DNA of 64,000 nt from a virus (lineage: Duplodnaviria > Caudoviricetes). Under the pieces are notes generated by a model. That model worked only from the letters and a program-made list of their open reading frames with translations. It did no database searches and was not told where the DNA came from. This document shows, one piece after another, positions 3,312-56,760 of the stretch. The position numbers were made by a program, and so were the translations under genes. Position 1 is the stretch's first letter; every line of letters starts with the position of its first letter. The stretch spans positions 17,354-81,353 of IMG/VR virus record IMGVR_UViG_3300049988_000375; one strand, written 5' to 3'.

Positions 3312-3385
3312 CTGCGATTGTCTGAAATAAAGTTGGCGAAATACTGCAATTGTCTTGTTATAATCGGACAATTGCAGTAGTTTTG
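3312..3385 (+). promoter_or_regulatory. Three-site promoter cassette, copy 1
   Basis: CTGCGATT at 3312, CTGCAATT at 3344, inverted AATTGCAG at 3370, then TAGTTTTG (-7-like). Confidence 0.8.
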
Positions 3386-3389
3386 CTTT

Positions 3390-3728
3390 GTGACAAGAGC
3401 CGCCCTGCAAGCCCTAGCCGAAGCCCTGCCCGCCGATGTGCTGATAGCCGCGAGCAACATCCATCGCCACCTGCCCGGCGTTCAGGACGTGCCCGCTGCC
3501 GTAGCCTACTGCGTTGCGCAAGGCTGGCTATGCGAACGGCGACAGTGGAATATCCATGAGATTTGGCGCGACAGCCGCCCGCACCAGCAGGCCACCATCC
3601 ACAGCAAGCCCCGCACTCCTTCAGCGCTACCCATCCCGCAGATGCACACGGCCGACACGCCCAACAAGCCTACCCCGAAACCCAAAAAGCCGACCACCGC
3701 CCGGCCAACTGGCGGCTTATTTACCTAA
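3390..3728 (+). CDS. Hypothetical protein
   Basis: 112-aa ORF starting just after cassette 1. Confidence 0.5.
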   Translation: MTRAALQALAEALPADVLIAASNIHRHLPGVQDVPAAVAYCVAQGWLCERRQWNIHEIWRDSRPHQQATIHSKPRTPSALPIPQMHTADTPNKPTPKPKKPTTARPTGGLFT

Positions 3729-3743
3729 TCCCCAACCAAATAA

Positions 3744-4256
3744 ATGGGACTCGATATTACCGCATACAGCGAGCTGTCTTACGCTCAACCGCAACCCAAC
3801 GAGGACGATGCGGGCGACTTCGTTAATCTATACTCAACACATTACCAGCGACTGCTATCGCAGCAGGAGGGTTACTATACGCGTAATGGAGAGCGGGTTA
3901 ATATTGCCTGTGGTAGCTATGGTCGCTATAGCCATTGGAGAGAGAGCCTCGCCCGCCTCGCCGGCTGGCCACTTGGCGAATACGAGCAATATGGTGCTAT
4001 GCACCCATCTCATTGCGCCTCGGCATGGAAGGCTCAATCTGGCCCATTTTGGGAGTTGATAAACTTTAGCGACTGCGATGGTAGCATTGGATTTGAGGTT
4101 AGCTCAAAACTTGCACAAGATTTTCAGCAGTATCGGCCAAGCATGGCACAGCGGGCTACCCTTATGCAAGATGAGGGCTATTTTATGAAGAAATACGATG
4201 AGTGGGCAGCGGCCTTTGCCTTAGCCGCCCAAAATGGTGCCGTTAAGTTTCACTAA
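3744..4256 (+). CDS. Phage hypothetical protein (MGLDI...GSY...FSDCDG type)
   Basis: 170-aa ORF, lower GC than neighbours, followed by a terminator. Confidence 0.7.
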   Translation: MGLDITAYSELSYAQPQPNEDDAGDFVNLYSTHYQRLLSQQEGYYTRNGERVNIACGSYGRYSHWRESLARLAGWPLGEYEQYGAMHPSHCASAWKAQSGPFWELINFSDCDGSIGFEVSSKLAQDFQQYRPSMAQRATLMQDEGYFMKKYDEWAAAFALAAQNGAVKFH

Positions 4257-4275
4257 AAGACCAGCACGCACTCGC

Positions 4276-4304
4276 AAGCCCCTGCCTAACGGTGGGGGCT
4301 TTTT
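4276..4304. terminator. Intrinsic terminator between convergent genes
   Basis: AAGCCCC/GGGGCTT stem followed by a T run. Confidence 0.75.
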
Positions 4305-4308
4305 GCAT

Positions 4309-5732: not shown

Positions 5733-5760
5733 CCTCTCGCCCAAACACCTCTCTCCCTAA

Positions 5761-7224
5761 ATGGCTTTTACTACCAATGCGGCGCTAAACCAAAGCACCG
5801 CTATTTCTATCCCGCAGGCGGACACCGCCTACCTGGATATTGACTTCTTCATCAAGCGCCCCGACCTGCTGGGTAAGGTGTTTGACTCGTGGGACAATAA
5901 GGGCTTCGTGGATATGCTGGCACTGACCGGCCGCGAAGAACTGATTACCAGCGAGACGTTCTCGAACTACGAAAGTGGCTTGCTGCCGCGCTCGGTGTCG
6001 TTCGCTACCGTTACCTCGGCTACGGCTGGTGGGGCTGTAGTAACGCTCACGGGCGACAGCATGACGACCGTAAACAGCGCCACCGGCCCTGTGTCCCGCT
6101 CGCCGCTCAAGGAGAACGACATTATCAAGTTGCCCGGCCGCCAGGAAGCGTTCGTGCAAATCAAGTCGAGCGTGAACGGTGGGGCCTCAGGTGCTGCCAC
6201 GACCTACACGCTGGTTAAGAGCGATAACAGCTCGGACGCCGCCTTTGACCTCGGCGCCTACCTCACGTCGGTTGCCGGCTCGGGCCAGCGCTTCGCCATC
6301 ACCTCGGCTGCCTTCTCGGAGGGCTCGTACGAAGCCCTGGAAGGCGTAGAAACCCCGATGGTGCGCTACACCGGCCAGCTCCAAATCTGCAAGACTCACT
6401 CGGAGATTACGGGCTCGGCCGCTGGCGACCGCTTCGAGATTCCGCTGGCGAACAGCAACGGCTCGAACTACTGGTACAGCAAGCAGCGCATCGAGCAGGG
6501 CCTGAACCACCGCATGAACGAGGGCCTGCAAATGCTCACCGGCAAAGGCGGCAACTTCATCGACAAGAACGGCAAAAAGGTCAAGACTTCGATGGGTCTG
6601 GAAGGCTTCGTGCGCAGCTACGGCAACGTGTACGACTACGCCAGCACCGGCTTTACGGCCGCCGACCTCGACGCGCTGACCGCCCGCATCAAGACCATCA
6701 TGGGCGGGACGGAGTACCAGTGGATTATGGGCTCGGACCTCTACCGCCAGGTGGCTTCGGTTATCCGCACCCTGCCCGGCCTGCAAGGCGGTGCCATTCG
6801 CTACGACATGTTCGGCAAGTCGGACGCCTCGGCCAAAGCCCTCGACCTCGGCTTTAACTCCATCATCTGGAACGGCATCACCCTCCACTTGCAGGAGAGC
6901 CCCGTGTACAACCACCCCGAGCTGCTTGGCCTGGCTGGCTACAACTACACCAAGCAAGGCTTCCTGATTCCTGGCGCCAAAACCCGCATCACGGGTTCGG
7001 ACAACGGGGTGAGCACGCCGCTGATGGGCAACATGGGCGCCGACGCCGACTCGCTGCGGATTCGCTATAAGCAGGACATTAACGGCCGCTCGCGCCGCTA
7101 CTTCTCCTACGACCGCGACATTACCACGACCGGCTTCGACACGACCAAGCACGAAATCATCTCGCATTGCGGCCTGCAAATGGTTGGCCTACGCCGCTTC
7201 ATCCTGGTTCAAATGGGCGCCTAG
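5761..7224 (+). CDS. Major capsid protein (487 aa)
   Basis: Size, strong codon bias, follows the scaffold gene, followed by a terminator; KTSMGLEGFVRSYGN segment in a typical MCP position. Confidence 0.8.
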   Translation: MAFTTNAALNQSTAISIPQADTAYLDIDFFIKRPDLLGKVFDSWDNKGFVDMLALTGREELITSETFSNYESGLLPRSVSFATVTSATAGGAVVTLTGDSMTTVNSATGPVSRSPLKENDIIKLPGRQEAFVQIKSSVNGGASGAATTYTLVKSDNSSDAAFDLGAYLTSVAGSGQRFAITSAAFSEGSYEALEGVETPMVRYTGQLQICKTHSEITGSAAGDRFEIPLANSNGSNYWYSKQRIEQGLNHRMNEGLQMLTGKGGNFIDKNGKKVKTSMGLEGFVRSYGNVYDYASTGFTAADLDALTARIKTIMGGTEYQWIMGSDLYRQVASVIRTLPGLQGGAIRYDMFGKSDASAKALDLGFNSIIWNGITLHLQESPVYNHPELLGLAGYNYTKQGFLIPGAKTRITGSDNGVSTPLMGNMGADADSLRIRYKQDINGRSRRYFSYDRDITTTGFDTTKHEIISHCGLQMVGLRRFILVQMGA

Positions 7225-7287
7225 TGCGCTAACTATATAGTACCTGCACTTGGTTGGAACCCCGGCGGAGTAGTGCCCGCCTCAAGG

Positions 7288-7318
7288 AAAGCCCCGCTGA
7301 TTTTCGGCGGGGCTTTTT
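7288..7318 (+). terminator. Intrinsic terminator after the MCP gene
   Basis: AAAGCCCCGCTG/CGGCGGGGCTTT stem plus T run. Confidence 0.85.
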
Positions 7319-7323: not shown

Positions 7324-7397
7324 CTGCGATTGTCTGAAATTTAGTTACCCATTCCCTGCGAAACGCAGGGAATTATCGGGAATTTGCAGTAACTTGC
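7324..7397 (+). promoter_or_regulatory. Three-site promoter cassette, copy 2
   Basis: CTGCGATT 7324, CTGCGAAA 7356, ATTTGCAG 7382, TAACTTGC 7390. Confidence 0.75.
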
Positions 7398-7424
7398 AAA
7401 AAGCAAACCTTTCCCCAACCGCCC

Positions 7425-8318
7425 ATGCAGCAACTTGCCACCGGCCTTACCCCCGCGCTGGAAACCATCTTTGATAAATTCCTGGATGAAAACCCCCAGC
7501 CCTACTTTAGCTTCCGAACGCTCGATGCCAACAAGGCGACGATGCCCGTCGTTGGGCCGGAAGGCAACGTAACGTCCCTACCCGTGAACGCCGCCCGCAT
7601 CCTGCCCGGCCGCACGAAGATTCGCACGGCGGGCGGCAAGCAAGTCTGGCTGCTCTACTCGGTGGAGGAGCAAACCGTGGAGCACCAAGGCGTGACTTCC
7701 GTTGTGGGCAAGCCCGAGCCCATTGCCTTCGAGCCCAAGGATTATTGCATCTTGGCCGTGCGCCGCGACGACCGCGAAAAGCTGGTGCGCCTGCTGTTCA
7801 GCGACGAGTGCCGCAACAGCCTCAACCCTGACAAGCGCCGCCCCGACCAGGGCGAAGTGTACGAATTGATTGAGCCCGCCAAAACCGCCGAGCAACTGGT
7901 GGTGAGCAAGGAGAAGGTGCTGGATGCCCAAATCGCCGTGCGCCAGGCCGCCGACAGCGAATTGAAGCTGGCCTGTGAGCGCCTGAGCCTCGCTGTGACC
8001 GACGACCGCAACCTGAACGCCGCCTCGCTCTACGACGCTGCCAGCGCCGACCCGGCCGCCGTGCTGCGGGTGCTGAGCGACGAGTGGGACAAGACCACGG
8101 CCCTGGTGCGCGACCTGACCACGTCCTGCGTGATTGAGTTCGACGCTGCCGAGCGCAAGTACCTCACCACCCTCGACCGCAAGGCAATCTTGAATGTGCC
8201 CACGGGCAACTTCGAGCAAGCCCTGATTAAGCACCTCTCCGACACGCAGGGCCAGAACCTCAAGCGCACCCTCGGCCGCCTGCTCGAAGAAGCCAACAAG
8301 AAGAAAGGCAAGAAGTAA
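7425..8318 (+). CDS. Putative auxiliary capsid/virion protein
   Basis: 297 aa directly after the MCP; basic C-terminus; synteny inference. Confidence 0.55.
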   Translation: MQQLATGLTPALETIFDKFLDENPQPYFSFRTLDANKATMPVVGPEGNVTSLPVNAARILPGRTKIRTAGGKQVWLLYSVEEQTVEHQGVTSVVGKPEPIAFEPKDYCILAVRRDDREKLVRLLFSDECRNSLNPDKRRPDQGEVYELIEPAKTAEQLVVSKEKVLDAQIAVRQAADSELKLACERLSLAVTDDRNLNAASLYDAASADPAAVLRVLSDEWDKTTALVRDLTTSCVIEFDAAERKYLTTLDRKAILNVPTGNFEQALIKHLSDTQGQNLKRTLGRLLEEANKKKGKK

Positions 8319-11920: not shown

Positions 11921-14900
11921 TCGCCACACCTTCGCCCGCCTCGACACCGACACTGCTGCCAGCGCCAAGCCGGCCAGCTCGTTCGACGCGGCCCTGAACA
12001 TCGCCCTCGAACCCGGCTACGTAACCGCTGTAGCTGGGAACGTAGCGGTGGGCTACGACCTGCCCCCCACGGGCACGAACAGGCGGCTGGGGGGCTTCGC
12101 AGATGGCAGCACGGGCGCGGTGGTATCGCTGCTCTACAACTCGTCGGGCCGGCACCGACTGGTGCGCTACGACCCGCTGGGCAACGGCGGGGCGGGCAGT
12201 GAAACCACGCTGCTCGAATGGGGCGGCCTGAACCTGTCACCTGACCTAGTGCCGCAGGGTGGGATTGTGGACGGACTGCTTACCTACCTCGGCGCCGATG
12301 GGCTGCTGCGGAGCGTGAACCTAGAGCGGGTAGCGGCGGGCTTCTACACCCCGGCGCTTCTCGCGGCGGAGCCCTTTTGCCTGCACGAAGTAAAGCCGCC
12401 GCCCACCGTGAACGCGCCTACGGCCGTGCGCCGGGTGGGCACGGGGGGCGACCCCCGCGAGAACCTGCGCATCATTCAGCCCAAAGCCTACCAGTTCGCG
12501 TGCCGCTGGCATTTCCTCGACGGGGAGGTGTCGGTGCTCTCGCCCTTCTCGCCGTGGCTGGACGTGCTGGAAGACCCCGCCACGACGACCTACAACTACA
12601 TCACCGTCACGCTGCCGCCCGCCCCGGCCGGGGTGTCGTCGGTGGAGGTGCTGACCCGCAACCCCGACACCGATGGCTGGCTAGGCTGCGAAGAACTGAC
12701 CCGCACGGCCAGCGGCTTGCCCGCCAGCTACAACTTCTACGGGGTGCTGAACGGCACGGCCCTCACGGCGGCCGAAGCCATCCGTCTACACGAAGCCGAG
12801 TGGCCCGGCCGCGTGGCTGGCATTGCCCACAGTCGGGCGTTTAAGGCTGACCTGCTCGAAGGCTACGTGACGCCCGAGCCGGCCTTTACGGCTACTGTCA
12901 CCACGGGCAACAGCGGCACGGTGGCGACTGACACGTACAAGCTGGTGGTAGAGTACTTTGAGCCCGGCCCGCCCTCGCAAAATGGCGAGCCGGTGCCCGA
13001 TATTATTTCCAGCCAAACCAACTACTTCCTGCTCGCTTCGGGCACTTACCCCGAGCCCACCTCACAGTACAACCCCATTGTTACCCGCAACGACGGGGGG
13101 CAGACGCGCTACACAGCCCGGCGCGATGTGACGCTGAGCTACGCCGACGCCTTCGCCGTTGGCCCACGGGAGACGTACCGCGAGGTGACGATTGAGCGCC
13201 TGGCGCTCTCCGATGGCACGAACGATTTGACGACCTTCCACGAGAACAGCAGCTACCGGGTCGCCGTGCAGTTCTACGATGCGCAGGGCAAGGCGGGCGG
13301 GGTCAGCAAGGCGGTGAGCGTGTTCGTGCCCAAGCGCGAGAAGGGCGACCAGAACTATCGCAGCATTTTAGCCAGTCTCACCACCACCGACTTGGCCGCC
13401 CTGAACGCGGAGATTCCGGCATGGGCATACTCCTACCAGTTCATGGTCGCCCGCAACGACCGCACGCTCTACTTCTTGCAGGGCCAGGCCGCCGACTGCT
13501 TCGGCTACCTCGGCCACACGATTGAGGTAAAAAGCGACGGGACACGGGTAGAGAGCGAGAAGCTGGTGGACATTATCCACAACGCCCACCAAAAGGTGTG
13601 GGTGGATATTGGCAACTTCCCAGCGGCCGGGCAGGGCTACGTGTGGCAGCCGGGCAGCGGCGACGTGCTGCGCTTTCTCAACGAGGACAAGGAGTTTATC
13701 ATCACCAACCAGGTGGGCGACTACCTCGAAGTGCAGTGGGATGGCTACCCCAACCTGAGCGTCGATGCCACCGGGCAGACCGTGGCCCGCATTGAAATCT
13801 ACTCGCCCAACACCACCCAAAGCGCCCTGTTCTACGAGCGCGGCCCGCGCCTGGCTATTCAGCGCACGGGCGCCGGGGAGAGCGAGCAGCGGTCTTATTC
13901 GCAACCGCAAGTGCTGCTAGAGGGCGATTGCTTTCTAGTGAGCCTGCGCTTCCCGCAACTCGACAAGGGGCGCGACAAGGACAACGACGAGAACTACCAG
14001 CCACCCAACAGGAAGTCGTGGCTTTCGGGCACGAGCGATTGGGTGGTGCTAGTGGAAAGCATGGTGCCGCCCTTCCGGCTGGCCCCGGCCACGACCACGA
14101 CCAGCACCATCTACGAGAAGCGCGAGAAAGGCGGCTTCTTTAGCAACCTGGTGAGCAACCCGCTGAACCTGATTGTGCCCGTTTTGGGCGTTATCAGCAG
14201 CATCGACTACCTCACCACCGACGAACCCAAGACGCCCGCTAATTCCGCGGCCACGACGGTAAACGCCGGGCGCACGGCCGCGAACTTCACCTGGCTGGAT
14301 ATGAGCTTCGGCGGGCGGGCCGGGGCGCAGGTGCCGGCTGCGTTGCAGCAGGTACGCCGCGAAAAGACCATTCGCTTCTCGGGCGTGAAGGTAGCGGGTA
14401 CGCTGCTCAACGGCCTGAGCCAGTGGGAAGCCCTGAGCCAGTACGACGAACTGCCGCAGGAGCAGGGGGCCGTAACGAGCCTCACCGTAGCCGACCAGAC
14501 GCAGACCGATGGCAGTATTTTGCTCGCCACCCAGCAGCGCGGCTCGGTGAGTTTGAGCCTTGGCCGCCAGCAGGTGCAAACCGCCGATGGGCAGGCGCTG
14601 CTTTCCATTAGCAAGCAGGTAATTGGCAGCAGCAACGCCCTGCGCGGGGGCTACGGCTGCACCGACCAGGGCAGCGTCGTTGCCTACGCGGGCAAGGTAT
14701 TCTACTACTGCCGCGAGCGCCACGAACTGGTGCGCTACGACCGCAACGGCAACTCGCCGCTGGGCCTCACCTACAAGGCCCGTACGCGCCTGGCGGAACT
14801 GGCCGCCCGGTACGCGGGCGCCGTGGTGCGCGGCTGCTTTCACCCCTACATCGACCGCAAGGAGTACTGGCTGACCTTCGAGCCGGTGGGCGAACTGCCG

Positions 14901-15422: not shown

Positions 15423-15928
15423 TGCACCTCACCGCCACCCCCTGCCCGCAAGCTGAATGGCCCGCCGCGATTGCCGCCGTATTTCGGGACGATACGCTGC
15501 TGCTCAACTACTACCACGTTGCCGCGCCCTGCGCGCTGGCGAGTGCCGTGGCTGATAGCTACTGCGCGCTGAAAGAGAATGCGGCGCCCGATTTTGTACT
15601 GTACGCTCTGCGCGAGCGCGGGCACCTGGTTGGCATGATAGGGGTGGAGCTGGAAAGCAACTGCCTCGTCACGTTCGGGCTGAACCGCTCGCACCGCACG
15701 GCCGAGGGCGTCACGGCACTGTCCCTAAAAATCCGTACCTTGCTAAATGTCAGGCAGCCTATTTACTGCCTGCTGTACAAGCGCAACCAACCCGCCCGCA
15801 AGTTTCTGCGCCGCATGGGCTTCACGCCCTCGCACGCCCCGCTGACGCACCCAACCACCAGGCAAACCGTCTTTCTCTACACCCTTTACCCCGCTACCCG
15901 ATGCCCGCAGGTGGATTCGCAACCATAG
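15422..15928 (+). CDS. GNAT-family acetyltransferase-like protein
   Basis: LVGMIGV strand and N.PARKFLRRMGF motif; ATG at 15422 overlaps the upstream stop; typical slot before podovirus ejection genes. Confidence 0.6.
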   Translation: MHLTATPCPQAEWPAAIAAVFRDDTLLLNYYHVAAPCALASAVADSYCALKENAAPDFVLYALRERGHLVGMIGVELESNCLVTFGLNRSHRTAEGVTALSLKIRTLLNVRQPIYCLLYKRNQPARKFLRRMGFTPSHAPLTHPTTRQTVFLYTLYPATRCPQVDSQP

Positions 15929-16587
15929 CCGCCCTCGGGGCCGTAAGCGCCGCCCCCAAACTACTCGCTTCCTGGAGCCAGAGCCGGGCGAGTCAGAAGC
16001 TCAAGCTGCAAGACACGCGCCCCGCCTCCTTTCTCGAAAAGCAGCAGCTCGCCCGCCAGGCGGCAGCAGCCGGTGCCCTGCCGGGCCAGGCGATGCAGCA
16101 AGCCCGCCTCGGCATGGTGCAGAACGGGGCGCTGCAAAGTGCCCGCCTCGGGGCGGCCAGCGGCAGTGACTTCCTGGCAAGCGCCGGGGCAGCCGATGCG
16201 CGCCGCATGAGTGGCGAGCAGCAGCTTGGCACGCAGTTCGGCCAGTACACCGACCAGGCACGCCAGCGCCTCGGGCAAGTGCTCGACCAGGACGCTGCCT
16301 ACCGCACCAAAGACCTCGACACCTTCAACCGCACGAAGGCAGCCCTCACGCAGAGCGCGGCCGAAAACCTCGACAACGGGCTGGGTACGCTTGCCTCCTA
16401 CGGGGCGCAGGGCGTGAACATGGGCCTTGCGAGCAAAGCCGCTGGGGCGATGGGTGGGGTGGGCGCCACTAGCCCCTATGCCTCGCCCTACGCGCCCGAC
16501 CTCTACCCGCAAACGGGCGGCGCCTACTTGCCCGGCCAAGTAATGGGCCTGAACCGCCCGCGCTACAACTCACGCCTCGGCTACTAG
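15901..16587 (+). CDS. Small ejection/internal virion protein
   Basis: 228 aa, Gly/Ala/Gln-rich with hydrophobic N-terminal segment. Confidence 0.6.
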   Translation: MPAGGFATIAALGAVSAAPKLLASWSQSRASQKLKLQDTRPASFLEKQQLARQAAAAGALPGQAMQQARLGMVQNGALQSARLGAASGSDFLASAGAADARRMSGEQQLGTQFGQYTDQARQRLGQVLDQDAAYRTKDLDTFNRTKAALTQSAAENLDNGLGTLASYGAQGVNMGLASKAAGAMGGVGATSPYASPYAPDLYPQTGGAYLPGQVMGLNRPRYNSRLGY

Positions 16588-16588
16588 C

Positions 16589-16861
16589 ATGGGACAGCTT
16601 TACCACGGCCACCGCATCTACATTGACGAGGACGACCGCGAGGTTATCCGGCCCGTTTCCTTTCTGTGGGATAACGTGCTGGACCTCGGCGGCAGCAAGG
16701 GCGTCGGGCTGAACTTCAAGAACAGGGAGCCCAAGACCTACGTAACCTTTCCCAACAGCCGGGGCATGTGGATTCTGGCCCCCATTAGCAAAATGCGCCA
16801 CCTGTGGAGCGCCTACCTCGGTGACGAGGTAGAACTAGATTTTTCCATCAACCTCAACTAA
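16589..16861 (+). CDS. Hypothetical protein
   Basis: 90-aa ORF tightly packed in the operon. Confidence 0.55.
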   Translation: MGQLYHGHRIYIDEDDREVIRPVSFLWDNVLDLGGSKGVGLNFKNREPKTYVTFPNSRGMWILAPISKMRHLWSAYLGDEVELDFSINLN

Positions 16862-16870
16862 CCCCGCTTT

Positions 16871-17233
16871 ATGCCCAAGCAAAACCGCCCCGCCGCCGAA
16901 CCCATTGTGACGCCCCACGACCCCGCCAATGATGGGCAAACCCCCAGCGACCCGGCCAACAGCGGCGACGCTATCAATACGCCCGAGGCCACCGAAACCC
17001 CCGAGCTGCAAAGCGACCTCGACAGCATCGTGGACGCCGTAGCGGGCAACGCCCCCGCCGATGGTACGGTGAGCGTGGACTTCGGCAAGGCGGGCAAGCT
17101 CACGGGCTGCCTCGTGCTGAATCACGCCCCTGGCGCCGACTACGCCGCCGACCAAGTGCTGAGCGTACTAGTACCCACCGAGGCCGGCTATGCCTCCATT
17201 CACGTCGAGGGCCGCTACCTGACCGCCGCCTAG
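16871..17233 (+). CDS. Hypothetical protein
   Basis: 120-aa ORF, acidic low-complexity N-terminus. Confidence 0.55.
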   Translation: MPKQNRPAAEPIVTPHDPANDGQTPSDPANSGDAINTPEATETPELQSDLDSIVDAVAGNAPADGTVSVDFGKAGKLTGCLVLNHAPGADYAADQVLSVLVPTEAGYASIHVEGRYLTAA

Positions 17234-17310
17234 CATGAGCGACATTGACGTTGGCTGAGTAAAGCTCGCCGCAAGATTCACCTCCAATTAGTTGCGCAAC
17301 TAGTTTACTA

Positions 17311-17341
17311 TAAGCCCCTGCTACACAGTAGGGGCTTATTT
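17311..17341 (+). terminator. Intrinsic terminator
   Basis: TAAGCCCCT/AGGGGCTTA stem followed by TTT. Confidence 0.65.
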
Positions 17342-17387
17342 GTGCGGGCTTTGTAACTTGCTATCACACCCTCCCCGCCCGCAAGCT

Positions 17388-19142
17388 ATGAATGGCCAGA
17401 TTGCCCCCAACGGCTTCAAAACCGTTGGCAACATCACCTACCTCTACGTGTACCTGCCCCTCGACGGGCGCAGCCTCGTAGCCCGCAAACAGCCTTATTC
17501 GGGCGGGATGCTAATTGACTACGCCACCATTAAAAACGAGGACTTTGACGCGGCACTGGCGGCGCCGGAAAAGCTCGAATACAAGCGCGGCACTGACCTC
17601 GACGCCAACCTAGGCGTACTGTTCAACCAACTCGGCACGGTGAACGCTGCCACGGGTGTTTCCAGTACCGTCACCGACCCGACCGACCGGCCGGGCCGAC
17701 TGCTCGGGCACGTCACGGTGGATAACTTCCCAACTAACTGGACGGGCGGCAGCGCCACGGCGGGCGCCACCGACGTATCAGCCCTCGCTAAAGATGCGAC
17801 GCTCACCGATGGCACGCAGAAGGCGCGGGTGACTAACTGGCCGGCTACCCAACAAGTGGGCGGGTCGGTAGCGGTCAGCAACTTCCCCGCGCCCGTAACG
17901 TCGGTGAGCGTGTCAAACTTGCCCACCACGCAGGCAGTTAGCGGCAGCCTGAGCATAAATAACTTCCCGGCGCCCGTAACCAGCGTGCAGGTGTCTAATT
18001 TGCCCGCTACGCAGCCCGTGAGTGGGCCGCTGACCGATGGACAGCTTCGCAGCGCGCCCGTGGCCGTAGCGGGCGATTTTTACCCCGACACGCAGCAGGT
18101 CAGCATCGCGGTAATGCCCACCACGCCGGTAACGGGCAACTTCTACCCGGCCGTGCAAGCGGTGTCTGGCCCGCTGACGGATAGCCAACTCCGCGCTGCA
18201 CCCGTGGCTGTCAATGGCACCGTGATTGTAGCGAACCCCACCAGCCCCACCGATGTATCGGCGCTGGCAAAGGACGCGACACTGACTAGCGGGGCGCAGA
18301 AAACACAGGTCACCAATACCGTGCCCGTCACTGGCCCCCTCACCGACACCCAGCTTCGGGCTACGGCCCTGCCAGTTGCCGGCGACTTCTACCCGGCTAC
18401 GCAGGCAGTGAGCATCGCCACGATGCCGACTACGCCCGTGGTGGGCACGTTCTGGCAGGCCACGCAGCCCGTTAGTGCCGCCAGCCTACCGTTGCCCGCT
18501 GGTGCAGCCACCGAAGCGACGCTGGCCGCCATAAAAGCCAAGACGGACAATATCGACGTGCTGCTTTCGACGCGCACCAAGCCAGCCGACACGCAGAAAG
18601 TGGATGGGAGCGGGGTAACGCAGCCAGTGAGCGCGGCGGCCTTGCCCTTGCCAGCCGGGGCATCTACGGCGGCCCTGCAAACAAGCATGGGGGCGCAACT
18701 GGCTGCGCTTGTCACAAACTCCCCGACTCTGGTGAGCGGGCGGCTGCCCGTGGACATTGGCGGGGCTACCGTCACGGCCAGCTTCGCGCCCAAGACCAGC
18801 GGCGGCGTGTCGGGCAAGCTCACCCTGGCTAATGGCGTGTCAGCTACCCCCACGGTGGTAAAGGCCACGGCCGGGCAAGTGTACCACCTGTTCGCGGGCA
18901 ACACGTCCAGCTCGGCCGTGTACGTGAACCTCTACGACAAAGCCACTGCCCCCGCAGCCGGCGACACGCCGAAGGAAATGTACCTAGTGCCCGCTGGCGG
19001 GACGCTCAGCCGTGACTTCGTGCTGGGCAGTCAGTTCACCAACGGCATTGGCCTCGCCATCACCTCGAACATCTCGCTGCTCGGCTCACTGACCGGCTTG
19101 CTAACGGCCAATGTGGTAATTGTGACCGTTCACTACGCCTAG
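17388..19142 (+). CDS. Repeat-rich putative fibre/decoration protein
   Basis: Likely start ATG 17388; many TQPVS, GPLTD.QLRA and TDVSALAKDATLT repeats; globular beta C-terminus. Confidence 0.6.
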   Translation: MNGQIAPNGFKTVGNITYLYVYLPLDGRSLVARKQPYSGGMLIDYATIKNEDFDAALAAPEKLEYKRGTDLDANLGVLFNQLGTVNAATGVSSTVTDPTDRPGRLLGHVTVDNFPTNWTGGSATAGATDVSALAKDATLTDGTQKARVTNWPATQQVGGSVAVSNFPAPVTSVSVSNLPTTQAVSGSLSINNFPAPVTSVQVSNLPATQPVSGPLTDGQLRSAPVAVAGDFYPDTQQVSIAVMPTTPVTGNFYPAVQAVSGPLTDSQLRAAPVAVNGTVIVANPTSPTDVSALAKDATLTSGAQKTQVTNTVPVTGPLTDTQLRATALPVAGDFYPATQAVSIATMPTTPVVGTFWQATQPVSAASLPLPAGAATEATLAAIKAKTDNIDVLLSTRTKPADTQKVDGSGVTQPVSAAALPLPAGASTAALQTSMGAQLAALVTNSPTLVSGRLPVDIGGATVTASFAPKTSGGVSGKLTLANGVSATPTVVKATAGQVYHLFAGNTSSSAVYVNLYDKATAPAAGDTPKEMYLVPAGGTLSRDFVLGSQFTNGIGLAITSNISLLGSLTGLLTANVVIVTVHYA

Positions 19143-19143
19143 A

Positions 19144-19184
19144 CCTTACCACTTCGGTAAGGTTAGTTTACCGAAGTGGTAAGG
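19144..19184. repeat. Inverted pair of replication-origin iterons
   Basis: CTTACCACTTCGGTAAG at 19145-19161 and a 16/17 inverted copy at 19167-19183; same unit as at 54970-55100. Confidence 0.9.
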
Positions 19185-19188
19185 TTTG

Positions 19189-19262
19189 CTGCGATTGTCC
19201 GAAAATAAAAGAGTGATTCGCTGCGATTGTCTTTATTATTTAAGAAATATGCAGTACATTTG
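19189..19262 (+). promoter_or_regulatory. Three-site promoter cassette, copy 3
   Basis: CTGCGATT 19189 and 19221, ATATGCAG 19247, TACATTTG 19255. Confidence 0.8.
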
Positions 19263-19268
19263 TAAAAG

Positions 19269-19394
19269 AACACGAGGGCATTCGTGTTGCAGAGACATAA
19301 CAAGTAGAACAAACCGGTCAGCCGGGATGGGCTCATCCCCCTGCTACTTGCCAGCCCCCGCAACGGAATGCCCTCCGTTCGGGGGCTTTTTGTT
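19269..19394 (+). ncRNA. Candidate small RNA / attenuator leader ending in an intrinsic terminator
   Basis: Hairpin AACACGA/TCGTGTT; stem CAAGTAG/CTACTTG with inner GGGATG/CATCCC; terminator AGCCCCC/GGGGGCT plus T run; complementary loops GGGCAT/ATGCCC. Confidence 0.55.
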
Positions 19395-24623: not shown

Positions 24624-24706
24624 GTATCAAAGGTATATACAAAAGGTGTATAAGGCAAATACAATGAGTGCTTTTTTAAATCACCTCGTCTACATATCTT
24701 TGGCCC

Positions 24707-33554: not shown

Positions 33555-33628
33555 CTGCAATTTCCCGAGTGTCGCGCCTGCTATTGCTGCGAATGTCTGT
33601 GATTGTTCGGGAATTTGCAGTAACTTGC
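33555..33628 (+). promoter_or_regulatory. Three-site promoter cassette, copy 4
   Basis: CTGCAATT 33555, CTGCGAAT 33587, ATTTGCAG 33613, TAACTTGC 33621; 33607-33640 identical to 7376-7409. Confidence 0.75.
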
Positions 33629-45432: not shown

Positions 45433-45506
45433 CTGCGATTGTCTGAAATTTAGTCGATAAAGTACTGCGATTTACTTTTTTTAGTAAGTAAATCGCAGTA
45501 TCTTTG
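45433..45506 (+). promoter_or_regulatory. Three-site promoter cassette, copy 5
   Basis: CTGCGATT 45433 and 45465, AATCGCAG 45491, TATCTTTG 45499; perfect 15-bp arms TACTGCGATTTACTT around an 8-bp spacer. Confidence 0.85.
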
Positions 45507-45536
45507 CTTCATACCCAATCCTTTATCCGCAACCTC

Positions 45537-46898
45537 GTGGCCGGAAAACTATCAGAGAAATCCATCGCCGGGGCTGCCCGCGCAACTGCTCTCGCCCACC
45601 CTCACTTAACTACGACCGTTGCACTTCGCCAGCAACTAACTGCTGACTACCCGCATCTGGCAAACGAAGATGGGCGGGCGGTGCTCACTGCCTGCCGTAG
45701 AGCCATGAGCAACAGATGCGAGGCCAGTAATTCCGGCGAAGTGCCGCTCGAGCCCGCTGCCCTAAAGGTCACAACGGAAGGGCAAGGTCGCACCATCGAA
45801 TCACTGGCTTCTACTACCGTTCGTACCCTCGACGGGCTGTTGCAGGCTAGTCAAACCGACCCGCTGCTGTGGGAGGTGACGCGCCACGAAATCAACAAGT
45901 GGGACGTGTCGATGAATACGGCTGACGGGCCGGCTGTCGCAACCAACTGGCAGGTAAAGGCGTGGCTCTCGCCAATTGAGCGAGTAAACGAATACACTGT
46001 AGCTGAGATGGCGAAGGTGCTGGCGCCCTTGGTGCGCCGCACTGGTCACGCATTCCGGCCCAAGCAGACCGAGGCGCACGCCGACTATCTATTGGAGCTG
46101 GATATTTTCGACCTGCACTTGGGCAAGCGCGCTGACGTGCTGGAAACGGGCGAGCACTACGACCTGCAAGCAGCCTGTGAACTCTACGATACGGCGGTCG
46201 ATAAGCTACTAGCCCGCGCCGCTGGTTACCCCATCGGCACGGTGTTGCTGCCCGTAGGCAACGACTTCTTTAACTCTGATAGCCTGCTAGGGGCTACCAC
46301 GAAGGGCACCCCGCAGCACGAGGACGCCAGATGGCAGCGCACGTTCGTTACGGGCTCGTCACTGATAATTGGGGCAGTTAATCGGCTACGCGAGAAAGGT
46401 TTGAAGGTGAAGATTGTGACGGTGCCCGGGAATCACGACTATCAAAATACGTTCTTCTTGGGGCAGGTCTTGCAGGCTACGTTCAGCGAGTGCCCCGACG
46501 TGGAAATTGATTGCACTTTCCCGCCCCGCAAGTACGTGCAGTTCCACGACTGCGCTATCATGTTCACCCACGGCAGCGACGAGAAGGAAAGCAACCTGGC
46601 AATGCTTTTCGCGCAGGAACAGCCGCTTATCTGGGCTGCCACCAAGTTCCGCGAAGCACACCTAGCCCACGTTCACCACAAGAAGGAGTTCAAGTACCGC
46701 ACAATGGCCGAGAACATCGGCCTCACGGTGCGCTACATGCGCTCGCTGTCGGCTACCGACGCCTGGCACTTCGCCAAGGGCTACGTAGGCTCTCACCGCT
46801 CGGCAGAAGCCTTCGTGTGGGCGCGTGGCGAGGGCGTGGTGGCCCACCTCACCTACACCTACTCACCCGTTAATCACCTCACGCGGCAAGCCGCATAA
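45537..46898 (+). CDS. Calcineurin-like metallophosphoesterase
   Basis: DLHLG, GNDFF, GNHD, THG and HVHH motifs; the track's TTG 45504 lies inside the -7 box, so GTG 45537 is preferred. Confidence 0.85.
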   Translation: MAGKLSEKSIAGAARATALAHPHLTTTVALRQQLTADYPHLANEDGRAVLTACRRAMSNRCEASNSGEVPLEPAALKVTTEGQGRTIESLASTTVRTLDGLLQASQTDPLLWEVTRHEINKWDVSMNTADGPAVATNWQVKAWLSPIERVNEYTVAEMAKVLAPLVRRTGHAFRPKQTEAHADYLLELDIFDLHLGKRADVLETGEHYDLQAACELYDTAVDKLLARAAGYPIGTVLLPVGNDFFNSDSLLGATTKGTPQHEDARWQRTFVTGSSLIIGAVNRLREKGLKVKIVTVPGNHDYQNTFFLGQVLQATFSECPDVEIDCTFPPRKYVQFHDCAIMFTHGSDEKESNLAMLFAQEQPLIWAATKFREAHLAHVHHKKEFKYRTMAENIGLTVRYMRSLSATDAWHFAKGYVGSHRSAEAFVWARGEGVVAHLTYTYSPVNHLTRQAA

Positions 46899-47864: not shown

Positions 47865-47895
47865 CGTTTGCCTTTTTTGCTTTTTAATTTGGTAT

Positions 47896-47925
47896 TTTGT
47901 CAAAGCGTGATGTATCTTTGACAAA
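47896..47925 (+). promoter_or_regulatory. Promoter of the tRNA cluster with overlapping inverted repeat
   Basis: TATCTTTG at 47913; TTTGTCAAAG-N10-CTTTGACAAA perfect inverted repeat. Confidence 0.6.
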
Positions 47926-51872: not shown

Positions 51873-51946
51873 TAAAACTACTGCGATTGTCTGATACTTG
51901 CAAGTGATTCACAGCGAATCGCCAACTTTATTTCAGACAATCGCAG
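51873..51946 (-). promoter_or_regulatory. Three-site promoter cassette, copy 6
   Basis: Minus strand: CTGCGATT, +32 CTGTGAAT, +58 AATCGCAG, then TAGTTTTA; 29 bp identical to copy 1. Confidence 0.75.
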
Positions 51947-51952: not shown

Positions 51953-53113
51953 TTAAAACGGGGCCTTCGGGAAGCCCGTGGCGGCAGTGGGAAAGCCCAC
52001 TGGCCGGGGTGCCTCATCCTCGAACGTGCTGGCCGGCAGCGGGCGTGGGGTGGCTGGTTGCACAGGTGACCCGCTGGCATCTACTAGCTCAGGGGCATAG
52101 ATTTTGGTAATGGTGGGGTGGGCGAGGGGCGCTACGCCGTTGAAGAGGTAGCGGCCGGTTTTCCAGTCGAACTCCACCAGCACGTCGGGGTTCTCGCTGC
52201 CCTCGCCAATGCTGCCGGGCTTGGCGTTAGCGCGGCGGTGGTTCTTGATTTTGCGGGTGTAGATGGCAAAGGCCGGGTCGCCTCCCTTCGCGTGGCGGTT
52301 GGGCCGGTCGTATGCCGTGATAGTGCCCGCGAAGTCGTTCCACGCCTCGCCGCCGCTCAGATGGTCGCTGTCCGGCACCGGCCACGCTTCATTTGGGGCG
52401 CGGTTAATGCGCTTGGGGTTGCGGGTGACGGTTAGGTACACCTGCGCTTCCTGCGTCCAGGTAGTCACGCGGTCCAGCTCCCGGTTGAGGTAAGCCACCT
52501 CACCGCCCGCCCGCTGCTCGCTGTGGTCGAGCTTGTGCCAAGGGTCAATCGCGAAGTGGCTGATATTGAGCTTTACTCTAGCCGCCTCGAAAATGTCGAG
52601 CAGGTGCGCGGGCGTCTTGCCTTGTCCCTTCACCGGCTGCACCACGTAGAAATGCTCGCGCACCCACTCCATCGCCTTCACGTACCGGGCACGGCTCAGC
52701 GGGTTGAGGCTTTCGGGGTTCGGGTCTTGGCCGGTGAGCGAGTGGATGAGCGCGTCGTAGTACGCCTCGCGGGGCATGTCCTCCGGCACCCAGCCGAGCG
52801 ACTTCTTGCCAGCCAGCGCAGCGCGTAGGAGCAATTCTTGGCGGGTGAACTCGCCCTTGCCCACGCCTGCGAAGGCGGTCTTCACGTTCACCCAGCCGGG
52901 CACCCACTTAAATATCGGGTCGAGGGCTTCGATGTGGGTAGTCTCGCCCTTGGGCCGGCTGGCGGGGTCGTCGTAGAAGGCGAGCATCTGCGCCTCGGTT
53001 GGCGCGTCGAGGCCCAGCACCGATTCGAGCGGGTCAATCTTGGGCTCCGCCTTGACAGCGGGCTTTTTCTCCCACTGCTTGTCGGGGTCGAGGTCGTCTA
53101 GCAAGCCGTTCAT
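51953..53113 (-). CDS. DnaB/T7 gp4-like (SF4) helicase domain protein
   Basis: AGVGKGE Walker A-like, FAIDPW Walker B, DHLSGG..W, DRP, KIKN motifs. Confidence 0.75.
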   Translation of the reverse strand: MNGLLDDLDPDKQWEKKPAVKAEPKIDPLESVLGLDAPTEAQMLAFYDDPASRPKGETTHIEALDPIFKWVPGWVNVKTAFAGVGKGEFTRQELLLRAALAGKKSLGWVPEDMPREAYYDALIHSLTGQDPNPESLNPLSRARYVKAMEWVREHFYVVQPVKGQGKTPAHLLDIFEAARVKLNISHFAIDPWHKLDHSEQRAGGEVAYLNRELDRVTTWTQEAQVYLTVTRNPKRINRAPNEAWPVPDSDHLSGGEAWNDFAGTITAYDRPNRHAKGGDPAFAIYTRKIKNHRRANAKPGSIGEGSENPDVLVEFDWKTGRYLFNGVAPLAHPTITKIYAPELVDASGSPVQPATPRPLPASTFEDEAPRPVGFPTAATGFPKAPF

Positions 53114-53760: not shown

Positions 53761-53762
53761 GG

Positions 53763-54416
53763 CTAGTAGAGGTTCGCGGCGTGCTTGGCTACGTAAGCGG
53801 GGTAGACTTGCTGGAATTGGCCGAGTAGGTCGTGGATGCTGCCACGCTGGTAGCCATTCGTCCAGCCACGTTCTCCGTTCTCGTGCTTGTAACCAATCAA
53901 CTCGCGCAGTTCAGTTTTCACCAGCGACTCGTTGAAGGGGGAGTCAGCCGGGTATTTTGTTAGCTCATCAACAAGTTTGATTCCGAGGCCCAAAAGGTCA
54001 GCCCATGCGAACAACTCGGGGAACTTGTCGCGGAAGGCCGAGGGCTGCCTGGGCGCCTGACCAACCACCCACTGGTAGATGCGGGTGTAGTTCAGGGGCA
54101 GCGACTTATACTTGTCGAGCAGCCCCTTGTAGCCCTGCTTGATAATGCTGTTGAGTTCGGCTAGGGTGAGGTTGGGGAAGTCCTCGGCAATGTCTTTGGC
54201 GAGTTGCTGCCAACCTTCTTCTGCGATAAGGTCGAAGCCATTGGTGCGGCACAGGCTGGCTTTTTGCAGGACAACAAGCACGGTGGCTGTCCCTTCGCTA
54301 GTCGAGGCCCAAAGCGCGACAGGCTGCAAAGGCGTTGGCAACTTGGTCGGCAGGGATGAGTCCGAGGGCTGTGGCGCGGTTGGCTGGGCTTGGAGTGAGT
54401 TGCTGGCTGGTTCCAT
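53763..54416 (-). CDS. Putative helicase loader / replication accessory protein
   Basis: Directly downstream of the initiator gene (position-based inference). Confidence 0.45.
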   Translation of the reverse strand: MEPASNSLQAQPTAPQPSDSSLPTKLPTPLQPVALWASTSEGTATVLVVLQKASLCRTNGFDLIAEEGWQQLAKDIAEDFPNLTLAELNSIIKQGYKGLLDKYKSLPLNYTRIYQWVVGQAPRQPSAFRDKFPELFAWADLLGLGIKLVDELTKYPADSPFNESLVKTELRELIGYKHENGERGWTNGYQRGSIHDLLGQFQQVYPAYVAKHAANLY

Positions 54417-55443
54417 GATGGATTAGTTGGGGGAGGATGTTGGTGAGGTTGCTGGCGATTTGGATAAGTTTCTGCTGGCGTTGCAGGAAGGCTTCGAGGC
54501 GGTTCCAGTTTTGCAGCAGGGCCGTGAACAGGGCCACGGTGGTTTCGTCGGTGCCGGCGCCGGGCTGGGCGAACAGCGTTTGGTAGATGGCGCGGGCCGC
54601 CTTGTTGTCGGCGGCCCCGCCCGCTGGTGGCTCGGCCTGGTTGTGCTGGCGATACCAAGTGCGGTAGACTTCCAGCATCAGCGCCCCTTTGCCAGCCAGC
54701 GGGTCGGCCTCGGTTCTGGCGGCCCGTCTTTTCGGCGCGGGCGGCGCGGCGGGCAGCAACGATGTTTGGGCTCGTAGGCTTTCAAGTTGTTGTTCCTGCG
54801 CTTTGAAAACCTCTACCGACTTCTCAATTCTTTTTTTGAGCCGCAAATTCTCAGCTTCCAGCTCGGCTATTTTTTTTTGAGAAGCGGCGTCAGCCGCCAA
54901 GGCTTTTTGTTCGAGTTCGGCAATTTTACTAAGTAGGGTTTCTTCCTTCTTTACTTCTATTAACTTATGCTTACCACTTCGGTAAGGTATCCTTACCACT
55001 TCGGTAAGGCTATCCTTACCACTTTCAGGCACAACCTTACCACTTTTAGCGCCTAACCTTACCACTTCGGTAAGGTCTGCAACCTTACCACTTCGGTAAG
55101 AACTCCGCAACTCAGGGGTCGGCGTGAGGGTGCGTCGCTGCCCGGCCACGCGGGGGGTGAGCAGCAAATAGCCGCGCTCTACCAGGGCGCTGATATGGCG
55201 GCTCACCATCGGCTCGGTCATGCCCAAGCGCTTCGCCAGGTGCCCGTTGTTGGCATCGAAGCACCCGCGCCCGCCGCACTCATAGAGTTGGCAAATGTCA
55301 GCCAGCACGCTTCGCATGGCGGGGTGCATCCCCTTAGCAGCCATAATCAGGTGCCCTACGCTTGTGGGCGCTTTATCAGCCACCATGTAGGATGCGGCGG
55401 GGTCTTCGGTCACAGAGGGCAGGAAGTGGTGAACGGCGGTCAT
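54298..55443 (-). CDS. Phage replication initiator (N-terminal winged HTH)
   Basis: ANNGHLAKRLGMTEPMVSRHISALVERGYL HTH; internal iteron array. Confidence 0.8.
   Translation of the reverse strand: MTAVHHFLPSVTEDPAASYMVADKAPTSVGHLIMAAKGMHPAMRSVLADICQLYECGGRGCFDANNGHLAKRLGMTEPMVSRHISALVERGYLLLTPRVAGQRRTLTPTPELRSSYRSGKVADLTEVVRLGAKSGKVVPESGKDSLTEVVRIPYRSGKHKLIEVKKEETLLSKIAELEQKALAADAASQKKIAELEAENLRLKKRIEKSVEVFKAQEQQLESLRAQTSLLPAAPPAPKRRAARTEADPLAGKGALMLEVYRTWYRQHNQAEPPAGGAADNKAARAIYQTLFAQPGAGTDETTVALFTALLQNWNRLEAFLQRQQKLIQIASNLTNILPQLIHHGTSQQLTPSPANRATALGLIPADQVANAFAACRALGLD
54970..55100. repeat. Replication origin iterons inside the initiator gene
   Basis: CTTACCACTTCGGTAAG at 54970, 54992, 55058 and 55084; degenerate copies at 55015 and 55036; 21-26 bp period; AT-rich flank near 54920-54969. 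Confidence 0.9.
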
Positions 55444-55485
55444 GGGGAAGGCGAAAAGCGCCCGGTGGTGAGCCGGGCGCGGTGA

Positions 55486-56661
55486 TTAGGCAGCAACAAC
55501 CTCGTGCAGCGGCACGAGCAGGCAGGTAAGGGGTGCGTAGTCGAGCCCGTTTAGCTCGTCGGTGATAACGACTGCGCGGCTGGCAGTTCCCAGCCCTACC
55601 TCAATCTTGCCCGAGTAAAGGGCCAGCAGGTTGGCTAGCTGTTCGCCGTTGAAGCTAATCTGCATGTCCTCGCCCTGGTATTCGCCCGCCACTTCCTCGT
55701 TGCCCGCCTGCGATAGCTCGTAGTTGGCCGTAACGAGGCGCACGGGAGCGTCCTGCGCGAGCGATATGGAAAGCTGGCGGTCTATGCCCGGCGCGTACTT
55801 GTTGAGGCGCCGTACGGCCTCGGCCAGCTCGCCGGCATCCACCCACAGCGTATTCGGGCTGGTAGGTGGGAATACGCGCTGGTAGGCAGGATACGTGCCT
55901 TCTGCCAGGCGCGAGGCCCACCGTCCATCGGCCAGGCGCACGTTCACCCCATCGGTGAGCAGGGTAACGGGTGCCTCGTCCTTGTCACTGAGCAGGCGCG
56001 CCAACTGTTCGGCCGGCGAGCGGCTGAGCATGAACGAGAGGCCCGACAAGCCAGTGGCTTCTTCCAGCCTGTAGCTGAACATCGACACGTTGGGGTTGTC
56101 AGCCCCCACGATGTTCACCGTGTAGCCCTCGATGGCGTTCTCGTCAGCGTCTATCTGCACGTTCTCGAACTCTGCGCCCAAGTTGTCACGGCGGGCAGTC
56201 ACCAGGGCCGAGAGCAGCCCGGCGCGCAGCACCTTGGCCGGCAGGGTGAGGGCGCGGTGCTTGGGGTTGAGGCCCAGCACCTTCGGAAAGTCGCTCGGCT
56301 TCATGCCGCTGAGCATGTAGCGGCTGCGGTCGGCGCGCACCTCGACGGTGTGGGTTTCCTCGTTGAGCAGAAACGTTACTGGCTGGTCAGGCAGCCCGCG
56401 TAGCGTCTCCAAAAGTCTTTTGGCGGGCACGAGGGCCGCAAAGTTGCTTTCGCACTCCACATCGGCTTTAACAGCCAGCGTGGTTTCGAGGTTGGAGCAG
56501 ATGATACGAACGCTCGCTGCTTGGCCTACTACGGAGCCGGTGCCCACCAGTAGGGCGCATTCCACGGCAGGCACGAGCGGCCGGGTGGCAATGATGGGCG
56601 TTACTTGCGCGAGGGCCTTGGCGAAGGCGCTGCTCGACGCGATGAATTTGACTTGGGGCAT
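55486..56661 (-). CDS. dnaN: DNA polymerase III beta sliding clamp
   Basis: 391 aa; SNLETT, ALLVPAKRL, DFP, LAEGTYPAY.RV and ISFNG..L motifs. Confidence 0.9.
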   Translation of the reverse strand: MPQVKFIASSSAFAKALAQVTPIIATRPLVPAVECALLVGTGSVVGQAASVRIICSNLETTLAVKADVECESNFAALVPAKRLLETLRGLPDQPVTFLLNEETHTVEVRADRSRYMLSGMKPSDFPKVLGLNPKHRALTLPAKVLRAGLLSALVTARRDNLGAEFENVQIDADENAIEGYTVNIVGADNPNVSMFSYRLEEATGLSGLSFMLSRSPAEQLARLLSDKDEAPVTLLTDGVNVRLADGRWASRLAEGTYPAYQRVFPPTSPNTLWVDAGELAEAVRRLNKYAPGIDRQLSISLAQDAPVRLVTANYELSQAGNEEVAGEYQGEDMQISFNGEQLANLLALYSGKIEVGLGTASRAVVITDELNGLDYAPLTCLLVPLHEVVAA

Positions 56662-56686
56662 GGGATTGGTTGGATGAGAGGGTAGA

Positions 56687-56760
56687 CAAACTTACTGCAA
56701 TTTCCTGAGCATAAAAAGGAAATCGCAGCAAAAGGCAAACTAAATTTCAGACAATCGCAG
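56687..56760 (-). promoter_or_regulatory. Three-site promoter cassette, copy 7 (drives dnaN-rep-helicase)
   Basis: Minus strand: CTGCGATT, +32 CTGCGATT, +58 AATTGCAG, then TAAGTTTG. Confidence 0.85.

Follow-up and report, generated by a model that had tools for sequence, protein, structure and literature searches.

What are the 74-bp cassettes that recur across the phage genome in IMG/VR provirus record IMGVR_UViG_3300049988_000375, and what reads them? The record is 81,353 bp long, and the window, the 64,000-nucleotide stretch analysed here, covers its positions 17354-81353; coordinates are those of the window unless "contig" is stated. An original prediction, made from the letters of the window, described seven such cassettes as three-site promoter/operator units with a Bacteroidota -7 box, spanning late, accessory and replication operons. 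On following it up we found an eighth copy, an inverted repeat that resembles a terminator, and cassettes of the same design built on a different word in related phages, none of which the original prediction had seen; its cassettes themselves stood. Our reading is that the cassette is probably a phage-specific, factor-dependent promoter module heading at least eight middle or late transcription units.

Anatomy of the Cassette

All seven copies lie where they had been placed, at 3312, 7324, 19189, 33555 and 45433 on the plus strand and at 51946 and 56760 on the minus strand. A regular-expression scan of the whole record added the eighth, of the same geometry, at contig 13673-13746 (window -3680), directly before the terminase operon. 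The identical spacing claimed for the copies holds for all eight, which align over 74 columns with zero gaps and 26 invariant columns. The three-site layout is also as described, with word 1 at offset 0, word 2 as a direct repeat at +32, and word 3 inverted after an 8-nt AT-rich spacer. The multi-word array was thus borne out, while the predicted number of about 21 sites rises to 24 with the eighth copy. The seven copies in the window are as follows.

3312..3385, plus strand: cassette 6 nt downstream of the portal stop codon; word 1 at 3312-3324, word 2 at 3344-3356, word 3 at 3365-3377, -7 box TAGTTTTG at 3378-3385
7324..7397, plus strand: cassette after the major capsid gene; -7 box TAACTTGC; ATG 27 nt later (gene 7425-8318)
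19189..19262, plus strand: cassette before the accessory operon; -7 box TACATTTG
33555..33628, plus strand: cassette heading the 33.6-45.4 kb operon; -7 box TAACTTGC; ATG 33 nt later
45433..45506, plus strand: cassette before the exonuclease gene (45504-46898); -7 box TATCTTTG
51873..51946, minus strand: cassette before a small-gene operon (51849 down to 49225); -7 box TAGTTTTA; ATG 23 nt later
56687..56760, minus strand: cassette before the sliding-clamp/replication operon; -7 box TAAGTTTG; ATG 25 nt later

The word is asymmetric and reads CTGCRAWTnnC, with CTGCRAWTKNCYK as the consensus of all 24 examples. C1, T2, G3 and C11 are present in every one of the 24, and C4, A6 and T8 in 23. Word 1 is the best conserved and continues into GAAATWWAGT in five copies; its most diverged form, CTGCAATTTCCCG, belongs to copy 33555. 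Word 2 of copy 7324 (7356-7368) has been rearranged into a perfect palindrome, CTGCG-AAA-CGCAG, lying inside ATTCCCTGCGAAACGCAGGGAAT (7351-7373), and folds on itself rather than pairing with word 3. The octamer that follows word 3 has the form TAnnTT(T)G: TAnnTTTG in four copies, TAnnTTGC in three and TAGTTTTA in one, with the TA and the TT invariant in 8/8 copies.

Conservation is limited to the three words and the -7 box, and the intervening segments are variable. A mobile repeat like a miniature inverted-repeat transposable element was considered and rejected, as identity is not uniform over the length of the cassette and the inverted repeat lies inside the cassette rather than at its ends. 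With 32-50% G+C, the cassettes stand out as AT-rich islands in a record of about 59% G+C. With up to three mismatches allowed, the 13-mer matched 30 times, against 17.2 ± 3.7 times in shuffles. Outside the cassettes a relaxed form of the word gave 11 orphans against 11.9 expected, which is no enrichment, so the signal comes entirely from the cassettes. None of the candidate regulator genes has an autoregulatory orphan word.

The Cassettes Form a Promoter Class of Their Own

Placement, orientation and the -7 box all support the original idea that the cassettes are promoter modules of late, accessory and replication operons. Each of the eight copies is intergenic or overlaps a gene end and is oriented like the next gene. 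The units that they head are the terminase, post-portal, post-capsid and accessory operons, two further virion/DNA-metabolism operons, the small-gene operon and the clamp/replication operon. In seven copies a start codon lies 23-50 nt past the -7 box. The exception is copy 19189: after it come about 125 nt of structured non-coding sequence (19263-19392) with no open reading frame (ORF), ending in a terminator-like hairpin (19370-19386) and a T-run. This sequence may represent a small RNA, or it may serve the accessory operon as a leader/attenuator.

The Bacteroidota -7 box lies at -12 to -5, and TAnnTTGY is a known variant of it (PMC9723704). Measured against the sigma-A pattern of the phylum at this position (TAnnTTTG or TAnnTTGY, followed by a short leader), the cassettes conform. 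The -33 element, TTTG at about 19-21 bp before the -7 box, is missing from them; only TTG stands there, in 2/8 copies. The -7 box is imperfect in 4/8 cassettes. With no -33 element and half of the -7 boxes imperfect, the cassette promoters look intrinsically weak.

Seven promoters of host type in the same record are built differently: tandem TTTGC repeats provide the -33 element, and the TAnnTTTG box is perfect. These promoters belong to cro, the tRNA cluster, the RHH operon, a divergent nuclease-like gene, the gene of a 145-aa winged-helix protein (wHTH-145) and two leftward operons near the contig start. One is listed here as the contrast class.

61744..61800, minus strand: host-type early promoter of the cro-like gene, with tandem TTTGC -33 repeats and -7 box TATCTTTG; not a cassette

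Others of the same build lie at 24635 (minus) and 47913 (plus, tRNAs) in the window and at contig 5442 (minus), 6486 (minus) and 7318 (plus). Tandem TTTGC / TTTTGCTTTTT repeats upstream of TAnnTTTG are shared by the host-type early promoters at 61744-61800 (minus), 47873-47920 (plus) and 24612-24702 (both strands) and at about contig 5442, 6486 and 7318, and they look like a multi-copy -33/UP-like element.

As had been noted, the cassette motif does not occur in the region between cI and cro, and the class is distinct from the cI/cro switch. That region is flanked by a perfect 9-bp inverted repeat, GTTAGCTTG / CAAGCTAAC, at 61713-61721 and 61835-61843, a possible operator pair of the switch that is unrelated to the cassette word.

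When the -7 box is set at -12, the words are centred near -72 (direct), -40 (direct) and -19 (inverted), and the array spans -78 to -13. Because the centres are 32 and 21 bp apart, all three words would lie on one face of the helix.

The Word Appears Private to the Phage, and Relatives Use Another

Portal homologues are labelled Hymenobacter, and related prophages are present in H. koreensis and H. glacieicola, which points to a Hymenobacter-like member of the Bacteroidota as the host. A genome that we call G011 carries a syntenic prophage, about 78 kb long, whose end genes are the same, and this suggests that the record covers most of the phage.

The full cassette was found in 0 of 274 Hymenobacteraceae genomes with up to one mismatch allowed. 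Its palindrome occurred in 17 of 121 genomes of the family, at no more than two sites per genome; these are species representatives and may not include the true host. The SOS box of the host family is CTAA-N5-TTAG (PMC8565304), which differs from the cassette word. We therefore rejected the SOS box, a host regulon and a host interspersed repeat as explanations. The original prediction had allowed for a host stress regulator as the reader, which these searches make unlikely, and had named an abundant host interspersed repeat as an outcome that would speak against a phage regulon; the 274 and 121 genomes searched gave no sign of one.

Searches of phage collections returned little. Within IMG/VR the full cassette pattern had 0 matches, a 17-mer of word 1 had 5, which is chance level, and a portal search found nothing. 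Megablast against GenBank phages also found nothing, and tblastn against them returned only portals of 20-25% identity, in phages of Maribacter, Flavobacterium and Cellulophaga. Relatives with 62-67% portal identity exist in Logan/ENA. One metagenomic relative showed no obvious repeated cassette in the 22 kb examined.

Three related prophages, in H. koreensis, H. glacieicola and G011, have the same design with a different word, GTACCTTG. In H. koreensis, promoters of the TTTCGTACCTTG type occur seven times, all within 45 kb of the prophage, with none elsewhere in the 5.3 Mb, and six of them have GTAC(G/A)AAA 46-47 bp upstream. H. glacieicola carries AATAGTAC-N42-GTACCTTG five times, and the prophage region of G011 has seven copies of GTACCTTG. 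Each related phage thus joins a word of its own, in fixed register, to the -7 box. The H. koreensis prophage also contains two back-to-back divergent promoter pairs (L024:19042-19100 and L025:11556-11614), in which the GTACCTTG boxes face outward with 47 bp between GTAC starts and each box serves as the upstream word of the other.

A Predicted Hairpin Inside the Promoter

A simple terminator scan missed the capsid terminator and was too crude to use, so we relied on RNA folding instead. Three copies are preceded by hairpins of their own.

7286..7318, plus strand: intrinsic terminator with GC-rich stem and T5, between the capsid gene and cassette 7324; upstream 60 nt -34.5 kcal/mol, z -4.8
19140..19188, plus strand: long perfect terminator-like hairpin ending in TTTG, abutting cassette 19189; -33.6 kcal/mol, z -8.5
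51955..51979, minus strand: terminator-like hairpin with T4, just upstream of cassette 51946; upstream 60 nt -24.0 kcal/mol, z -2.5

Since these hairpins with T-runs stand directly before copies 7324, 19189 and 51946, these copies would start new transcription units.

The eight copies divide by what lies upstream. Four of them (-3680, 3312, 45433 and 56760) have a co-directional upstream gene and no terminator in between, and in these words 2 and 3 pair at 12, 11, 13 and 11 of 13 positions, with predicted energies of -19 to -25 kcal/mol and z of -5 to -8. The inverted repeat is perfect in copy 45433 (-22.3 kcal/mol, z -7.6; no upstream terminator) and pairs at 11/13 positions in copies 3312 (-19.3 kcal/mol, z -6.2; no upstream terminator, z +0.9) and 56760 (-19.7 kcal/mol, z -5.1). 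In the four copies behind a terminator or a divergent gene, pairing falls to 8, 9, 8 and 9 of 13: copy 7324 pairs at 8/13 only, copy 19189 at 9/13 with a weak hairpin (-9.7 kcal/mol, z -1.6) and copy 51946 at 8/13 (-6.9 kcal/mol, z -0.6). By the stem-loop criterion of the T4-type phage elements known as PeSLs, the hairpin is strong in 4-5 of the 8 copies, as a folding prediction only. Words 2 and 3 complement each other better when both come from the same copy than when they come from different copies (permutation p ~0.005-0.008; 3-4 of 500 shuffles).

Two of the strong hairpins fall exactly at the ends of early operons, the wHTH-145/nucleotide-kinase operon and the cro/ERF operon; word 1 of copy 56760 overlaps the end of the last gene of the latter. 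A comparable arrangement exists in G011, where two cassettes have a canonical GC-rich terminator with T6-7 between the upstream GTACG word and the -7-proximal GTACCTTG (L036:3762-3832 and L038:998-1068), and the T-run of the terminator leads straight into the promoter box. The inverted repeat thus probably also stops read-through where no separate terminator precedes the cassette, and if it does, the downstream genes would depend on the cassette promoter.

Stopping transcripts is unlikely to be what chiefly preserves the words. Upstream of copy 33555 the gene at 32666-33454 is divergent and no co-directional transcript enters, and all three words are present there nonetheless. Since the words are kept in copies where they do not pair, and in this copy that no upstream transcript reaches, the primary constraint would be recognition as DNA and not RNA structure.

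Candidate Readers

The original prediction had noted no Q antiterminator, sigma factor or RNA polymerase (RNAP), and Pfam searches of the record agree, with no match to Sigma70_r2, Sigma70_r4_2, a T7-type RNA polymerase or Q; for the T7-type polymerase the negative is weak, as the control genomes were silent too. Profiles of Mor, WYL and RepL had no match in the record either. P1 Lpa gave nothing better than E 5.5 by tblastn against the whole record, and its hhalign comparison with the wHTH-145 family left a relationship extremely improbable. As neither the cassette nor its palindrome behaves as a host element, the reader is most probably encoded by the phage.

Proteins with a DNA-binding fold are wHTH-145, an HTH_17 protein, the cro-like protein, two small RHH-like proteins and cI. 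We put forward the RepL-like wHTH-145 (contig 7330-7767) as a weak candidate. Its gene is the first behind a host-type promoter, and homologues in the H. koreensis and G011 prophages lie upstream of the first structural cassette. Its model is a winged helix (the pLDDT indicates a confident prediction), and it groups with small phage RepL-like proteins. The G011 homologue is closer overall to the protein of this phage (48.5% identity) than to that of H. koreensis (36.4%). It shares S-Q-H..N in the recognition helix with the latter, parallel to the GTAC word that the two have in common, while all 11 proteins of the clade of this phage have S-[AP]-Q at that position. Small ORFs upstream of the H. 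glacieicola structural operon had no Pfam match.

A broader scheme for this Hymenobacter prophage lineage can be drawn from these observations, although we regard it as doubtful. A terminator hairpin inside an activator-dependent promoter would gate the temporal classes, a RepL-like protein would be the middle/late activator that replaces -33 recognition, and word and recognition helix would co-evolve (CTGCGATT versus GTACGAAA).

How the Cassette Might Work

On the activator reading, recognition of the -7 box (TAnnTT, -12 to -5) would fall to the sigma-A holoenzyme of the host, and the three CTGCRAWTnnC words would stand in place of the missing TTTG at -33. A phage DNA-binding protein, made from an early host-type promoter, would occupy the words and switch the promoters, most likely as an activator making up for the missing -33 contact. 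The distal word, which is well conserved, may be its high-affinity anchor. Where no terminator precedes the cassette, the nearly perfect inverted repeat would halt read-through from the upstream operon, which is in part early, and the whole would act as a gate that combines a terminator with a conditional promoter.

We lean towards an activator over a repressor because the -33 element is missing, because the register between word 3 and the -7 box is exact to the base in all copies and the related phages do likewise, and because late genes of well-studied phages are as a general rule under positive control (PMC10695390). Several observations weigh against this account. Word 3, centred near -19, falls within the spacer; proteins bound there usually block RNA polymerase, and this would suit a repressor as well. 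That word 3 always abuts the -7 box favours activation and does not prove it. The co-variation of the arms is modest at the permutation p given above (~0.005-0.008), and the relation between hairpins and terminators was spotted post hoc among n = 8 copies, with a chance of about 1 in 70 by rank. The candidacy of wHTH-145 hangs on a single phylogenetic contrast, and the H. glacieicola contig yielded no homologue of it, even though cassettes are present in that phage. Foldseek returned only generic MarR/CRP-like winged helices, and RepL-like proteins are usually called replication initiators.

It is unlikely, in our judgment, that the words are instead repressor operators, with a phage protein that is present in the lysogen or made late coating -78 to -13 and silencing eight otherwise active promoters. 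The geometry would serve such a protein well, since the inverted repeat extends over the -33 position and through the spacer as far as -13, a typical occlusion site, and a cooperative three-site array on one helix face suits a repressor oligomer. There is a precedent in SPBRE, a repeated element in about 10 SPbeta promoter regions on which one repressor acts (PMC10516654), and the array can be likened to the targets of SPbeta MrpR or to the stoperators of Cluster A mycobacteriophages. What such a protein would be silencing is less clear, as promoters without a -33 element, half of them with an imperfect -7 box, look weak to begin with. Occlusion also has no need of base-exact register in 8/8 copies, the region of the cI-like S24 repressor itself lacks the word, and no second lysogeny repressor was identified.

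Three further explanations can be set beside the activator reading. We consider it improbable that the cassette is a portable composite of terminator and promoter with no dedicated regulator, spread by recombination like a PeSL and acting as a crossover point for module shuffling; its makeup and gene-boundary placement do resemble PeSLs (PMC4122927, PMC2839356) and copy 19189 heads an accessory operon, but conserved words and a -7 box amid variable segments are the pattern of protein recognition and not of recent copying, and unaided initiation is hard to square with the missing -33 element. Also improbable is an element that works in the RNA, with word 1 as a linear box, words 2 and 3 as a hairpin and TAnnTT as a U-rich tract, serving as a nut-like antitermination, terminator or processing site. 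Box-plus-hairpin layouts recall boxA/boxB, the hairpins are strong in four or five copies and stand exactly where upstream transcription can enter, and their arms co-vary. Against this, the words persist in the non-pairing copies 7324, 19189 and 51946 and in copy 33555, the tail keeps TA and TT invariant as a -7 box does and differs from the plain T-runs of the real terminators of the phage, the loops are unconserved, and no Rfam family matched. A lambda-type nut site in particular would be out of place in copy 33555, behind a divergent gene, and in the three copies behind strong terminators. Finally, there is a slight chance that a host transcription factor, such as a stress regulator, reads the words and that the lytic genes are wired into a host regulon. 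The genomes searched may not include that of the actual host, which leaves some room for this, but the family genomes already described lack the cassette and hold the palindrome at most twice each, related prophages of the same family use a different word, that of H. koreensis is confined to the prophage, and the known SOS box of the family differs (PMC8565304).

Comparison with Known Phage Regulons

The closest working analogue, without homology, is the Lpa regulon of phage P1. In the 11 late promoters of P1, a host-type -10 element is joined not by a -35 element but by a conserved inverted repeat, the site of Lpa. Lpa is a 150-aa activator that acts with host SspA; its own promoter is of host type, is under repressor control and lies directly before the packaging genes (PMC10695390; P1 record annotation). 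The likeness lies in many dispersed promoters with a host-type -10-like box and an inverted repeat that replaces the upstream element; in the 8 cassettes the repeat spans -46 to -13, and a -33 element is lacking. P1 differs in having one 9-bp inverted repeat at about -22, where the cassette has three words of 11-13 bp from -78 to -13 and a Bacteroidota -7 box. In addition, the regulon here includes replication genes, and no Lpa homologue was found (tblastn E >= 5.5).

Like the PeSLs of T4-type phages, the cassettes are short repeated units at gene boundaries that join a stem-loop, in the cassettes a putative terminator, to a promoter (PMC4122927, PMC2839356). PeSLs carry early sigma-70 promoters that work unaided and they mediate indels, whereas the cassette has no upstream element, its stem arms are conserved recognition words and a third word stands upstream. 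SPBRE/MrpR of SPbeta is similar in that a short element recurs between the genes of a large temperate phage, in about 10 promoter regions; SPBRE was predicted in silico, and its reader was found about two decades later (PMC10516654). It is a single 15-bp motif through which a recombinase-fold protein represses, while here three words stand in fixed register with the -7 box and the promoters have the look of activator-dependent ones.

The record has no Mor-family match, which sets it apart from phage Mu; Ogr/Delta were not searched for. Mu Mor/C and P2 Ogr / P4 Delta serve promoters with a poor or absent -35 element, on which a small phage activator binds a dyad upstream of or overlapping -35, and those phages have at most four such promoters each, with a single dyad. 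The regulon signal described here is real and non-random, and it is of a familiar kind in a phage lineage whose gene control is unstudied. What would be new is the embedded hairpin, which is probably terminator-like, and, more weakly, a RepL-like reader.

Gene Map and Neighbouring Features

The genes that anchor the map are the following.

contig 15725-17782: large terminase
865-3306: portal
5761-7224: major capsid
24707-24874: RHH protein
45504-46898: exonuclease
54298-55443: winged-helix replication-initiator-like protein
55486-56661: DnaN-like sliding clamp
58479-59096: ERF recombinase
61139-61489: HTH_17 protein
61486-61701: cro-like protein, 71 aa, with LacI-type HTH
up to 62672: cI-like protein, HTH and S24 peptidase
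end of record: tyrosine integrase

An Rfam scan of the record returned two tRNAs only. On the plus strand, 26580-32654 encodes a 2024-aa protein in which only a DarB-like antirestriction segment was recognised (PHROG, residues 767-1075). It had no sequence match in the PDB, and when it was tried as a crAss-type virion polymerase nothing supporting was found. Homologues occur in all three related prophages, and the protein may be a virion-packaged enzyme. Two minus-strand proteins (23532-24623 and 32666-33454) break up the plus-strand virion region; the C-terminal part of each weakly matches phage endonuclease I (Pfam E 1e-4 to 8e-4), and the first has its own host-type promoter.

Significance

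A literature search turned up nothing on how Hymenobacter phages programme their transcription, and almost no such programmes are known for temperate phages of Bacteroidota in general. The hosts have an atypical sigma factor and promoter grammar. The present analysis supplies a testable parts list: eight promoters, 24 predicted binding words with exact geometry, early promoters for contrast, candidate readers, and sister phages that use a different word. The arrangement of a terminator inside a promoter would be a compact means of insulating temporal classes from one another. If the activator reading is true, the regulon would show a phage factor substituting for the -33 contact of the Bacteroidota RNA polymerase, and it could supply an orthogonal inducible pair of promoter and regulator for a phylum poor in genetic tools.

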